Source: Escherichia coli (GTDB taxonomy: Bacteria; Pseudomonadota; Gammaproteobacteria; Enterobacterales; Enterobacteriaceae). Taken from it: DNA of 64,000 nt. Location: assembly GCF_044647545.1 (NCBI RefSeq), contig NZ_CP172818.1, one strand, 5' to 3'. The position numbers and the translations under genes are program-made. The notes beneath the pieces are model-generated. The model saw nothing but the letters and a program-made list of their open reading frames with translations. It was not told the DNA's origin and did not search any database. This document shows, in pieces, positions 20,779 through 29,425 of this stretch (the first letter of the stretch is position 1; every line of letters begins with the position of its first letter).

Positions 20779-22692
20779 ATGTCATCCGATATTAAGATCA
20801 AAGTGCAAAGCTTTGGTCGTTTCCTCAGCAACATGGTGATGCCAAATATCGGCGCGTTTATCGCGTGGGGTATCATCACCGCGTTATTTATTCCAACAGG
20901 GTGGTTACCGAACGAAACGCTGGCGAAGCTGGTCGGGCCGATGATCACTTATCTCCTGCCACTGCTGATCGGTTATACCGGTGGTAAGCTGGTAGGCGGC
21001 GAACGTGGCGGCGTAGTCGGTGCCATTACCACCATGGGCGTTATCGTCGGCGCAGACATGCCGATGTTCCTCGGTTCTATGATTGCAGGTCCGCTGGGCG
21101 GCTGGTGCATTAAGCACTTCGACCGCTGGGTAGACGGTAAGATCAAATCCGGTTTTGAAATGCTGGTGAATAACTTCTCCGCAGGCATCATCGGGATGAT
21201 CCTCGCTATTCTGGCATTTCTCGGCATTGGCCCGGTTGTTGAAGCCCTGTCTAAAATGCTGGCGGCGGGCGTTAACTTCATGGTTGTCCATGACATGCTG
21301 CCGCTGGCGTCTATCTTTGTTGAACCGGCGAAAATCCTGTTCCTCAACAACGCCATTAACCACGGTATCTTCTCGCCGCTGGGTATTCAGCAGTCCCATG
21401 AACTGGGTAAATCCATCTTCTTCCTGATTGAAGCTAACCCAGGTCCAGGTATGGGCGTGCTGCTGGCGTACATGTTCTTTGGTCGTGGTAGCGCTAAACA
21501 GTCTGCGGGCGGTGCGGCAATCATCCACTTCCTGGGGGGTATCCACGAAATCTACTTCCCGTATGTGCTGATGAATCCGCGTCTGATTCTGGCCGTTATC
21601 CTCGGCGGTATGACTGGCGTATTCACGCTGACTATCCTGGGCGGTGGGCTGGTTTCTCCGGCATCTCCGGGTTCTATCCTTGCTGTACTGGCGATGACGC
21701 CAAAAGGTGCTTACTTCGCTAACATCGCGGGTGTGTGTGCGGCGATGGCAGTCTCCTTCGTTGTCTCTGCTATTTTGCTGAAAACCAGCAAAGTGAAAGA
21801 AGAAGATGATATTGAAGCTGCTGCGCGTCGCGTTCAGGAAATGAAAGCTGAGTCTAAAGGTGCATCTCCGCTGTCTGCGGGCGATGTGACTAACGACCTG
21901 AGCCACGTACGTAAAATCATCGTTGCCTGTGACGCCGGTATGGGTTCCAGTGCGATGGGCGCAGGTGTGCTGCGTAAGAAAATTCAGGATGCAGGTCTGT
22001 CGCAGATTTCTGTTACTAACAGCGCGATCAACAACCTGCCGCCAGATGTGGACCTGGTCATCACTCACCGTGACCTGACCGAACGCGCTATGCGCCAGGT
22101 TCCGCAGGCACAGCATATTTCGCTGACCAACTTCCTCGACAGCGGCCTGTACACCAGCCTGACCGAACGTCTGGTTGCTGCCCAGCGCCATACTGAAAAC
22201 GAAGTAAAAGTGAAAGACAGTCTGAAAGACAGCTTTGACGATTCCAGTGCTAACCTGTTCAAGCTAGGCGCGGAGAACATCTTCCTCGGTCGCAAAGCGG
22301 CCACCAAAGAAGAAGCGATTCGTTTTGCTGGCGAGCAGCTGGTGAAAGGCGGTTACGTTGAGCCGGAATACGTTCAGGCGATGCTGGATCGTGAAAAACT
22401 GACCCCGACTTATCTGGGTGAGTCTATCGCGGTGCCACACGGTACGGTTGAAGCAAAAGATCGCGTACTGAAAACGGGCGTGGTGTTCTGCCAGTACCCG
22501 GAAGGCGTGCGCTTCGGTGAAGAAGAAGATGACATTGCCCGTCTGGTGATTGGTATTGCTGCCCGTAACAACGAGCACATTCAGGTTATCACCAGCCTGA
22601 CCAATGCACTGGATGATGAGACTGTCATCGAGCGTCTGGCACACACCACCAGCGTGGATGAAGTGCTGGAATTGCTGGCAGGTCGTAAGTAA
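20779..22692 (+). CDS. mtlA: PTS mannitol-specific EIICBA component
   Basis: 637-aa ORF ([31 protein letters not shown]...) with membrane EIIC, EIIB Cys region and C-terminal EIIA domain. Confidence 0.95.
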
Positions 22693-22786
22693 TCCAATCC
22701 TCCCCTCTCCTCACGGAGAGGGTTTGGGTGAGGGAAAAGCCTCACCCCAGCCCTCTCGGGTAAAAACATTGATGAAGGTTAATACT
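22693..22786. repeat. GC-rich intergenic palindromic element (two stem-loops) between mtlA and mtlD
   Basis: cctctcctcacggagagg and ggtgagggaaaagcctcacc inverted repeats; possible attenuator or REP-like element. Confidence 0.5.
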
Positions 22787-23935
22787 ATGAAAGCATTACA
22801 TTTTGGCGCAGGTAATATCGGTCGTGGCTTTATCGGTAAACTGCTGGCAGACGCGGGTATCCAACTGACGTTTGCCGATGTCAATCAGGTGGTACTTGAT
22901 GCCCTGAATGCCCGTCATAGCTATCAGGTTCATGTGGTTGGTGAAACCGAGCAGGTAGATACCGTTTCCGGCGTCAATGCTGTCAGCAGCATTGGTGATG
23001 ATGTCGTTGATCTGATTGCTCAGGTTGATTTAGTCACTACCGCCGTGGGCCCGGTTGTGCTGGAACGTATTGCCCCGGCAATCGCCAAAGGGCTGGTGAA
23101 ACGTAAAGAACAAGGTAATGAATCCCCGCTGAACATCATCGCTTGTGAAAACATGGTCCGCGGCACCACACAGCTGAAAGGACATGTGATGAACGCCCTG
23201 CCGGAAGATGCCAAAGCGTGGGTAGAAGAACACGTTGGCTTTGTTGATTCCGCCGTTGACCGCATCGTGCCGCCTTCGGCTTCTGCAACCAACGATCCGC
23301 TGGAAGTGACGGTAGAAACATTCAGCGAATGGATTGTTGATAAAACCCAGTTCAAAGGCGCGCTGCCGAACATCCCAGGCATGGAGTTAACCGACAACCT
23401 GATGGCATTTGTTGAGCGTAAACTCTTCACCCTGAATACAGGTCATGCTATAACCGCGTACCTCGGAAAACTGGCCGGTCATCAGACCATTCGTGATGCG
23501 ATTCTCGACGAGAAAATCCGCGCGGTGGTAAAAGGTGCGATGGAAGAAAGTGGTGCAGTATTGATCAAGCGCTACGGCTTTGACGCAGACAAACATGCGG
23601 CGTACATCCGGAAAATCCTCGGTCGTTTCGAGAACCCGTACCTGAAAGATGATGTAGAGCGCGTAGGCCGTCAGCCGCTGCGTAAACTGAGTGCTGGCGA
23701 CCGTCTAATCAAGCCACTGCTCGGAACGCTGGAATATGGTCTGCCACATAAAAACCTGATTGAAGGTATTGCCGCTGCAATGCACTTCCGCAGTGAAGAT
23801 GATCCGCAGGCTCAGGAACTGGCAGCACTGATCGCTGACAAAGGTCCGCAGGCGGCGCTGGCACAGATTTCCGGTCTTGATGCCAACAGCGAGGTTGTAT
23901 CCGAGGCGGTAACCGCTTATAAAGCAATGCAATAA
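22787..23935 (+). CDS. mtlD: Mannitol-1-phosphate 5-dehydrogenase
   Basis: 382-aa product from the ATG at 22787 ([20 protein letters not shown]...), Rossmann GxGxxG motif. Confidence 0.95.
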
Positions 23936-25423: not shown

Positions 25424-25460
25424 ATAGGCCGAGTAAGGTGTTCACGCCGCATCCGGCAAG
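25424..25460. repeat. REP element
   Basis: ataggccgagtaaggtgttcacgccgcatccggcaag, matching the REP consensus (reverse orientation). Confidence 0.65.
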
Positions 25461-25544
25461 ATAAGGCGCTCTGGATCAACAACCTAAGGGCAATTCTCTG
25501 ATGAGGATTGCCCTTTTCTTTACCAGACATCTCCCTCCACCAAG

Positions 25545-28191: not shown

Positions 28192-29378
28192 TTATTTCCG
28201 CAGCCAGCGATTATCGCGCCGCAGCACAACGCATTCTGCCGCCGTTCCTGTTCCACTATATGGATGGGGGGGCATATTCTGAATACACGCTGCGCCGCAA
28301 CGTGGAAGATTTGTCAGAAGTGGCGCTGCGCCAGCGTATTCTGAAAAACATGTCTGACTTAAGCCTGGAAACGACGCTGTTTAATGAGAAATTGTCGATG
28401 CCGGTGGCGCTAGGTCCGGTAGGTTTGTGTGGCATGTATGCGCGACGCGGCGAAGTTCAGGCTGCCAAAGCAGCGGATGCGCATGGCATTCCGTTTACTC
28501 TCTCGACGGTTTCCGTTTGCCCGATTGAAGAAGTGGCTCCGGCTATCAAACGTCCGATGTGGTTCCAGCTTTATGTGCTGCGCGATCGCGGCTTTATGCG
28601 TAACGCACTGGAGCGAGCAAAAGCAGCGGGTTGTTCGACACTGGTTTTCACCGTGGATATGCCGACACCGGGCGCACGTTACCGTGATGCGCATTCTGGG
28701 ATGAGCGGCCCAAATGCGGCAATGCGCCGCTACTTGCAGGCGGTGACGCATCCGCAATGGGCGTGGGATGTGGGCCTGAACGGTCGTCCGCATGATTTAG
28801 GTAATATCTCGGCTTACCTCGGCAAACCGACCGGACTGGAAGATTACATCGGCTGGCTGGGGAATAACTTCGATCCGTCCATCTCATGGAAAGACCTTGA
28901 GTGGATCCGCGATTTCTGGGATGGCCCGATGGTGATCAAAGGGATCCTCGACCCAGAAGATGCGCGCGATGCAGTACGCTTTGGTGCTGATGGAATTGTG
29001 GTTTCTAACCACGGTGGCCGCCAGCTGGACGGTGTGCTCTCTTCTGCCCGTGCACTGCCTGCTATTGCAGATGCGGTGAAAGGTGATATCGCCATTCTGG
29101 CGGATAGCGGAATACGTAACGGGCTTGATGTCGTGCGTATGATTGCGCTCGGTGCCGACACCGTACTGCTGGGTCGTGCTTTCCTGTATGCGCTGGCAAC
29201 AGCGGGCCAGGCGGGTGTAGCTAACCTGCTAAATCTGATCGAAAAAGAGATGAAAGTGGCAATGACGCTGACTGGCGCGAAATCGATTAGCGAAATTACG
29301 CAAGATTCGCTGGTGCAAGAGCTGAGTAAAGCGCCGGCGGCGGCGCTGGCTCCAATGGCGAAAGGGAATGCAGCTTAA
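28188..29378 (+). CDS. lldD: FMN-dependent L-lactate dehydrogenase
   Basis: 396-aa ORF ([29 protein letters not shown]...), alpha-hydroxy acid oxidase family; overlaps lldR by 4 bp. Confidence 0.95.
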
Positions 29379-29425
29379 GGGTTAGATGAATATCTGCTAT
29401 CCTGCCCCCGCACTAAGGGGGCAGT

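Follow-up and report, generated by a model that had tools for sequence, protein, structure and literature searches.

A divergent BoxC/PIT/TMECO repeat in the mtlA-mtlD spacer of Escherichia coli as an apparently ancient stem-loop component of the mannitol operon

The spacer between mtlA and mtlD in the window, by which we mean the whole 64-kb stretch of E. coli DNA that was analyzed, contains a structured element that, by comparison with published repeats, is a divergent, truncated palindromic member of the BoxC/PIT/TMECO family. This copy is probably an ancient, single-locus component of the mtlADR operon that acts in the sense RNA as an intercistronic stem-loop module, serving as a decay barrier or an insulator and not as a terminator. 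The kind of element is already known; what appears to be new is a divergent member that has become an ancient operon component, with RNA-stem-like substitutions under selection.

Structure and family membership of the mtlA-mtlD element

The mtlA stop codon TAA (22690-22692) and the mtlD start codon ATG (22787-22789) delimit a spacer of 94 nt (22693-22786), in which the structured element spans positions ~22703-22760 (58 nt), the remaining sequence forming the A/U-rich ribosome-binding region of mtlD. Matches at 95% identity or more to a 701-nt query spanning the locus were obtained in 5405 of the 5426 complete E. coli genomes. The features of the locus are as follows.

20779-22692, plus strand: mtlA, PTS mannitol transporter IICBA (from the ORF list and the RefSeq annotation of near-identical E. 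coli records).
22693-22702, plus strand: linker of 10 nt from the mtlA stop codon to the element (from the alignment of E. coli alleles).
22703-22710, plus strand: b1, pyrimidine block CCCTCTCC, 5' arm of hairpin P1.
22711-22714, plus strand: P1 loop TCAC; varies between species in sequence and length (3-8 nt), including GNRA and UUCG tetraloops.
22715-22722, plus strand: b2, purine block GGAGAGGG, partner of b1 (in P1) or of b2' (in P3); the most conserved of all blocks.
22723-22725, plus strand: j1, junction TTT, resembling the type-A loop TTA of canonical TMECOs; covaries with j2.
22726-22734, plus strand: b3, purine block GGGTGAGGG, 5' arm of hairpin P2; in DNA, a potential third triplex strand on b1:b2.
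22735-22739, plus strand: P2 loop AAAAG; replaced in other genera by 9-19 nt of unrelated sequence.
22740-22747, plus strand: b3', CCTCACCC, 3' arm of P2; compensatory changes in orthologues L052 and L072.
22748-22750, plus strand: j2, junction CAG, whose reverse complement CTG resembles the type-B loop.
22751-22757, plus strand: b2', CCCTCTC, second partner for b2, giving the alternative long hairpin P3-J-P2.
22758-22786, plus strand: GGG followed by the A/U-rich mtlD leader, with the Shine-Dalgarno sequence GAAGG at 22774-22778.
22787-23935, plus strand: mtlD, mannitol-1-phosphate 5-dehydrogenase, the downstream gene.

The original prediction, that two adjacent hairpins fill the 94-bp spacer, was accurate for the hairpins themselves, which are both perfect 8-bp stems at the coordinates given: P1 consists of CCCTCTCC (22703-22710), loop TCAC and GGAGAGGG (22715-22722), and P2 of GGGTGAGG (22726-22733), loop GAAAAG and CCTCACCC (22740-22747). 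Each hairpin pattern occurs once in the 64-kb window and was not found in 100 shuffles. The hairpins do not fill the spacer, however, and a third arm, CCCTCTC (22751-22757), had been overlooked. Through this arm, GAGAGGGTTTGGGTGAGG can pair with CCTCACCCCAGCCCTCTC (18 nt, 89% complementary) to give an alternative fold, P2+P3, which excludes P1 since P1 and P3 both use b2. Folding of the RNA from 22685 to 22795, one of the checks proposed with the prediction, confirmed a stable structure, with -39.9 kcal/mol compared to -28.0 +/- 3.3 kcal/mol for shuffled sequences (z = -3.7; 0 of 200 shuffles as good). An Rfam scan over the element returned only chance-level overlaps with mir-2954 (19 bits against a gathering score of 96; E = 4.5), and no promoter-like site was found at the element. 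The spacer region is regarded as non-coding because loop lengths differ between species by non-multiples of three, and minus-strand ORFs over the spacer were rejected for the same reason. The ATG at 22772-22774, in frame and five codons 5' of the mtlD start, was rejected as a start codon; it reads ATA, ACG or TTA in other genera.

Bachellier and colleagues reportedly counted 32 BoxC copies in 1999, and Hoyne and colleagues are said to have described 25 PIT elements in 2000. The repeat was first named BoxC, then PIT (potential intrastrand triplex) and then TMECO (Holder et al. 2015, PMC4666352). BoxC is described as a 56-bp repeat in 32 copies (PMC2267715), and the TMECO consensus is given as CCCTCNCCC N3-6 GGGNGAGGG N3 GGGNGAGGG (PMC4666352). 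The b2-j1-b3 segment of the window copy, GGAGAGGGTTTGGGTGAGGG, is identical to the canonical type-A core, GGAGAGGGTTAGGGTGAGGG, at 19 of 20 bases, and b1 corresponds to the first eight of the nine bases of the canonical block-1 variant CCCTCTCCC (Table 1 of PMC4666352). The blocks of the mtl element are laid out as b1, b2, b3, b3' and b2', the terminal b1' arm being absent, and the element is wholly intergenic, as is the location of the family. In palindromic TMECO pairs, one junction is always of type A (TTA) and the other of type B (CCG, CTG or TCG) (PMC4666352); the left junction of the mtl copy, TTT, is type-A-like with one change, and the right junction, once reverse-complemented, reads CTG as in TMECO no. 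8. Palindromic pairs of K-12 have the arrangement b1 b2 b3 - N16-27 - b3' b2' b1', for example between hrpB and mrcB (L086 1035-1119) and between gcvP and ygfF (L087 8552-8650).

The mtl copy therefore has in common with BoxC/PIT/TMECO repeats the same three blocks in the same order and in near-identical sequence, a 3-nt junction, an intergenic position, a palindromic pair with A-like and B-like junctions, and an indel-prone flank. It differs by a stem of 8 bp instead of 9-10 bp, by the junction TTT instead of TTA or CCG, by a distance of 5-6 nt instead of 16-27 nt between the halves, and by a right-hand half that lacks the outer arm of full pairs. No match to the strict TMECO consensus was found in the window, because the b1:b2 stem has 8 bp rather than 9, one pair being lost at the loop end; a version allowing three substitutions over the three blocks likewise gave no match in the window, and blocks 2 and 3 of the consensus match with one substitution at 22714-22734. 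The strict expression matched 24 of 62 orthologous copies from other species. The mtlA-mtlD copy is not among the 23 TMECOs tabulated for K-12 MG1655 (PMC4666352), the supplements of Holder et al. 2015 do not mention mtlA, mtlD, b3599 or b3600, and a literature search found no paper connecting BoxC with mtlA.

The proposal that the element belongs to a dispersed repeat family was well founded as far as the family is concerned, since the canonical unit, searched in all complete E. coli genomes, was found at up to 32 places per genome, with a median of 19. The genome-wide search gave a different answer for the mtl variant itself, which BLAST of the 67-nt element against the 5,426 E. coli genomes placed at the mtl locus only, with an exact copy at a median of one place per genome at BLAST sensitivity and no second copy in the 64-kb window. 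In such a search of 28 Gb, an E value of 10 or below is out of reach for short diverged copies, and the canonical consensus was searched separately for that reason.

Conservation across genera and polymorphism of the spacer

BLAST detected the element in 5404 of 5426 E. coli genomes. For the comparison between species, mtlA-mtlD spacers were extracted from the 80 closest MtlD-encoding loci, with one genome per species and an MtlD identity of at least 81%. The element was present in 67 of these 80 loci, in Escherichia, Citrobacter, Salmonella, Klebsiella, Enterobacter, Kosakonia, Cedecea, Buttiauxella, Mangrovibacter, Siccibacter and others. Sixty-three spacers parsed into the same nine segments, under a regular expression that limits how far the blocks may diverge; L024, L041, L065 and L072 are more diverged and visibly keep the architecture. 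In L041 and L065, from two genera, b2' has diverged and a small CCC-N4-GGG hairpin persists.

Orientation and truncation are constant among the orthologues, and the element ends 28-33 nt before the mtlD ATG. The stretch from the mtlA stop codon to b1 ranges from 7 to 171 nt, the inserts found there being REP units, ERIC-like sequences, small hairpins and a second, inverted BoxC-like unit; in compact spacers, and in most spacers of the Enterobacteriaceae type, the beginning of the first stem lies 3-14 nt past the mtlA stop codon. Independent insertions would not reproduce the same truncation everywhere. Homogenization by gene conversion is unlikely for three reasons: the E. coli and E. albertii copies have retained an 8-bp stem and a TTT junction of their own, the Enterobacter mtl copies use CTA where CCG or TTA is found in neighboring BoxC units of these loci, and in Cedecea neteri the second unit of the spacer has a different b1 and a different junction. 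As judged from the alignments, the mtl copy is an ancient single-locus part of the mtlADR operon, under purifying selection in the Enterobacteriaceae sampled. It is near-universal in E. coli and orthologous across genera, whereas published TMECO loci differ greatly between strains, and instability associated with TM elements has been reported.

The contrast is illustrated 6.6 kb from the invariant mtl copy by the lldD-trmL spacer, a typical strain-variable BoxC locus. This spacer has ~48 nt and no BoxC unit in the window (29378-29425), compared to 198 nt in K-12 (L005 11581-11778), where L005 11593-11719 is occupied by an inverted pair of canonical BoxC/TMECO units, listed as nos. 17 and 18 by Holder et al.

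Length polymorphism of the E. coli mtlA-mtlD spacer, with alleles of 94, 229, 319 and 419 nt and rarer others, is confined to the region 5' of the element. The window carries the compact 94-nt allele. The K-12 allele of 229 nt has an extra 135 bp, made up of the hairpin CCCACCCTCTCCACATGGAGAAGGTGGGG and a REP pair, and the 319- and 419-nt alleles have further REP units, the additions overall comprising an extra hairpin and two to six REP units. An even-step sample of 59 full-length matches contained 10 short, 37 K-12-like and 12 longer alleles, the short allele thus representing ~17% of the sample, including O157:H7 strains. The REP consensus (GCCGGATGCGGCG... / GCCTGATGCG...) with its imperfect palindromes is absent from 22693-22786, REP units being restricted to the extra 135-325 nt of the other E. 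coli alleles. A 135-bp deletion between two direct CCCTCTCC repeats appears to have given rise to the short allele, because E. albertii has the long form and the sequence TCCAATCCTACCCTCTCC is found in the closest genome with a short allele. In other genera, however, spacers are generally compact.

Several additional repeats were observed in and around these loci. Citrobacter werkmanii (L011), C. youngae CCUG 30791 (L013) and Enterobacteriaceae RIT691 (L051) have an insert of ~127 nt between the mtlA stop codon and the element, in the first ~135 nt of the spacer. This insert contains GAATCCCCAGGAGC...GACTGGGGTGAGCG, which we take to be the ERIC/IRU core. A second BoxC-like unit is present 5' of the conserved one in Cedecea neteri, two "Enterobacter sp." and Franconibacter (L055, L061, L067 and L072); it is complete in L061 and remnant-like in L055, L067 and L072, and is inverted in at least L055 and L061. 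These second units mark the mtlA-mtlD spacer as a putative repeated insertion target. Canonical BoxC/TM units with CCG and TTA junctions are also found in Enterobacter ~500 nt 3' of mtlR (L025 3809-3841, L028 3793-3825 and L030 3668-3756). In the window, the intergenic sequence 3' of mtlR at 25427-25467, ggccgagtaaggtgttcacgccgcatccggcaag, gave a sub-threshold match to Rfam naRNA4 (27 bits against a gathering score of 59.5) and looks like a single REP unit.

Spacers of the Pantoea type (L069, L071, L073 and L075-L085; 91-99 nt), two of which (L069 and L076) are labeled Enterobacter in their records, contain no BoxC blocks. They contain two directly repeated GC-rich hairpins, GGGGCGGGCAAGCCCGTCCC and GGGGCGGATTTGCCCGCCC, that end ~27 nt before the mtlD ATG. 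Although wholly unlike the BoxC-type element in sequence, these are again two adjacent GC-rich hairpins at the same place that are able to refold into one long hairpin. The occurrence of an unrelated GC-rich hairpin pair at this position in Pantoea and its relatives suggests, by analogy, that the mtl operon may need a stable structure there.

Substitution pattern in the stems

Among 60 distinct sequences, the mean pairwise identity of the five stem blocks was 0.92-0.99 (0.92 for b1 and 0.99 for b2). The corresponding values were 0.51 for 38 four-fold degenerate mtlD sites in the same comparison, 0.47-0.51 for the loop ends and 0.35 for the 5 nt located 5' of b1, and loop lengths ranged from 3 to 19 nt across orthologues. 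In the long hairpin, 91.8% of the cells are paired, compared to at most 58% with the partners slid, and five pairs have changes on both sides, values that were reached by 0 of 500 shuffles. True covariation is thin, with 7 of the 19 pairs being invariant. Compensatory changes were found in the stems (GGGTGAAA/TTTCACCC in L052 and GGGAAAG/CTTTCCC in L072) and at the junctions (TTC/GAA, CCA/TGG, TTG/CAG and TTA/TAG). The P1 pair counts were obtained by block-anchored parsing instead of from the MAFFT alignment, in which b1 was misaligned because loop lengths differ. The P1 loops include GCAA, GAAA and GGAA, of the GNRA type, and UUCG and UCCG, of the UNCG type.

In the sense strand, the stems contain 40 G·U cells versus 3 A·C cells, which are not independent events, or ~22 versus 2 independent events when counted by lineage. 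This excess points to hairpins in the sense mRNA, because both kinds of change would be equally detrimental to a DNA cruciform or to the antisense strand. Part of it could stem from the dual role of b2, from additional constraint on the purine blocks or from a bias toward C-to-T changes on the non-template strand.

The same data bear on the possibility, which we regard as unlikely, that the element acts as DNA and has no role in the mtl mRNA. Blocks b1, b2 and b3 of the non-template strand would then form an intrastrand purine-motif triplex, or the palindrome would extrude as a cruciform, and the presence of the element would be explained by an activity of BoxC DNA, for example as a hotspot of recombination or instability or as a site for replication or nucleoid proteins. 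The sequence does permit b3 (GGGTGAGG) to be placed antiparallel on b2 (GGAGAGGG) with eight consecutive allowed triplets of the types G*G:C, T*A:T and A*A:T (in order G*G, G*G, G*G, T*A, G*G, A*A, G*G and G*G, checked by hand) and loops of 4 and 3 nt, an arrangement that would satisfy the criterion of Hoyne as quoted by the citing source (more than 7 perfect triplets and loops of 0-10 nt). Canonical TMECO oligonucleotides do form triplexes in vitro, and the 5' flank of the element is an indel hotspot, in the E. coli alleles as in the REP, ERIC-like and BoxC inserts found elsewhere, which fits the reported TM-associated instability. However, in vivo footprinting gave no support for a stable triplex (PMC4666352). 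Blocks b3' and b2', which are superfluous for a triplex, are 92-93% conserved and their changes are mostly C-to-T, so that G·U pairing is kept, and the changes of b3 in L052 and L072 weaken the triplets and restore a Watson-Crick hairpin. C-to-T and G-to-A changes should be equally penalized in a cruciform, in contrast to the lineage counts given above. Finally, dispersed BoxC loci are strain-variable, as exemplified by the missing lldD-trmL pair of the window, whereas the mtl copy is nearly universal. The replacement of b3 GGGTGAGG by GGGCGAGG, with a compensated b3', is an example of a change that keeps RNA pairing and breaks triplex potential. A pyrimidine-motif RNA triple helix, combining b1:b2 with b2', was also considered and rejected: b2' emerges beside the 3' end of b2, and only an antiparallel arrangement is possible.

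The four G-tracts of b2-j1-b3 (GGGAGAGGGTTAGGGTGAGGG in most genera) raise the question of an RNA or DNA G-quadruplex competing with the hairpins. A perfect (G3N1-7)3G3 motif, resembling telomeric repeats, is present in 35 of 63 orthologues. A tract of two G residues replaces one of the four in E. coli, including the window copy, in Citrobacter and Salmonella (GGTTGAGGG) and in L020 and L063, leaving no perfect motif in the window; in addition, each G-tract has a conserved C-rich partner. The NMR analysis of a DNA oligonucleotide by Holder et al. favored the triplex over the G-quadruplex (PMC4666352). We consider a G-quadruplex to be extremely improbable.

Possible roles in the mtl mRNA

The strong GC-rich hairpins between two cistrons had also been proposed to act as an intra-operon attenuator. 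This proposal did not withstand analysis, transcription attenuation or termination being very improbable: neither hairpin is followed by a U-run, no terminator-like site was found on either strand between 22500 and 23000, and the sequence 3' of the element is A-rich (GGGTAAAAAC). Hoyne and Maher 2002, as cited by Holder et al. (PMC4666352), observed no promoter, terminator or polymerase-blocking effect in vivo for such elements. The 3'-end (Term-seq) supplementary tables of Adams et al. 2021, which may be incomplete and in which the operon was probably uninduced, list no 3' end in the spacer; they list an antisense RNA 3' end inside mtlD (MG1655 3775490, minus strand) that is unrelated to the spacer element. 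No entry for the mtlA-mtlD spacer was found in those RNase III and RNase E data tables that were searched. The element resembles classical attenuators, with their 1:2 and 2:3 pairings, in having a central strand, b2, with two mutually exclusive partners, b1 upstream and b2' downstream. It differs from them in having neither a U-tract terminator hairpin nor a leader peptide, nor a change in occlusion of the ribosome-binding site large enough to predict regulation.

The existence of two exclusive folds could alternatively indicate a bistable riboregulator, in which a switch between P1+P2 and P2+P3, set by the terminating ribosome, by a protein (for example MtlR/HPr, ProQ or CsrA) or by access of Rho to the C-rich arms, would tune mtlD-mtlR relative to mtlA. 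The two folds are nearly iso-energetic in most species, with means of -42.2 kcal/mol for P1+P2 and -41.1 kcal/mol for P2+P3, and with -38.9 and -38.2 kcal/mol, respectively, for the window copy, which prefers P1+P2 by ~2 kcal/mol when folded with its flanks. The competing pyrimidine arms b1 and b2' are both conserved, the predicted unpaired fraction of the Shine-Dalgarno sequence differs modestly between the two folds (0.71 versus 0.51), and the first stem lies close to the mtlA stop codon in compact spacers. However, the near-degeneracy is automatic, b1 and b2' being the same sequence, and neither fold closes the mtlD ribosome-binding site, so that there is no indication of an on/off switch in translation. 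Nor is the spacing between the mtlA stop codon and the element conserved, as described above, and none of the data examined pointed to a ligand or protein partner. In particular, the co-occurrence of mtlR gives no signal of a partner, because mtlR is present in all 80 loci, with or without the BoxC-type element. On balance, a riboregulator of this type is quite unlikely.

We return to the intercistronic stem-loop module proposed at the outset, which fits the constant distance to mtlD, the tolerance of insertions on the mtlA side and, in most spacers of the Enterobacteriaceae type, the proximity of the first stem to the mtlA stop codon. The sense transcript would fold into two adjacent GC-rich stem-loops, P1 and P2, near equilibrium with one long stem-loop, P2+P3, and the structure would end ~30 nt before the mtlD start codon. 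Following cleavage in the A/U-rich leader, the stem-loops may protect the mtlA segment from 3'-to-5' exonucleases, and this block would uncouple the decay of mtlA from that of the mtlD-mtlR segment. The stem-loops may also insulate the mtlD initiation region, keeping its ribosome-binding site free from upstream pairing. A mechanism acting on mRNA decay or translation is one that we can only infer; mRNA stabilization is the likeliest type of function, given that selection appears to act on hairpins of the sense transcript.

The closest functional parallel is provided by REP/BIME sequences. Work by Newbury and colleagues in 1987 is said to have identified them as intercistronic mRNA stabilizers, at malE-malF, and in 2015 Liang, Rudd and Deutscher reportedly found that REPs proximal to a stop codon lower upstream translation. 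Like REP/BIME, the mtl element is a GC-rich extragenic palindrome between sugar-transport cistrons, starting within ~15 nt of the upstream stop codon, and by analogy the likely mode of action of both would be a barrier to 3' exonucleases. The two belong to unrelated sequence families, and REP copies are not orthologously conserved across genera, whereas the mtl element is. The window allele lacks the REP/BIME units that adjoin the mtl element in K-12-type alleles.

BoxC/PIT/TMECO repeats have been known since the 1990s without a function being found, and published work calls them unstable and dispensable. The mtl copy is fixed in E. coli, keeps its position and architecture throughout the Enterobacteriaceae sampled and changes as an RNA helix would, and it provides a concrete test case in an easily induced operon. 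For annotation, the element accounts for the mtlA-mtlD spacer and for its strain-to-strain length polymorphism, and it cautions against automatically treating a match to a repeat family as junk. A further-reaching reading, which we put forward as doubtful though conceivable, is that the element works as an ancient RNA, the mtlADR mRNA having retained it as a bistable stem-loop module over a period well in excess of 100 million years (a rough estimate). If this were true, it would be the first BoxC-type element with evidence for a cellular role; the mtl copy would perhaps set the MtlA:MtlD:MtlR ratios through decay or translation, or bind a protein, and the dispersed, unstable BoxC copies would be degenerate or selfish relatives of a working RNA structure.
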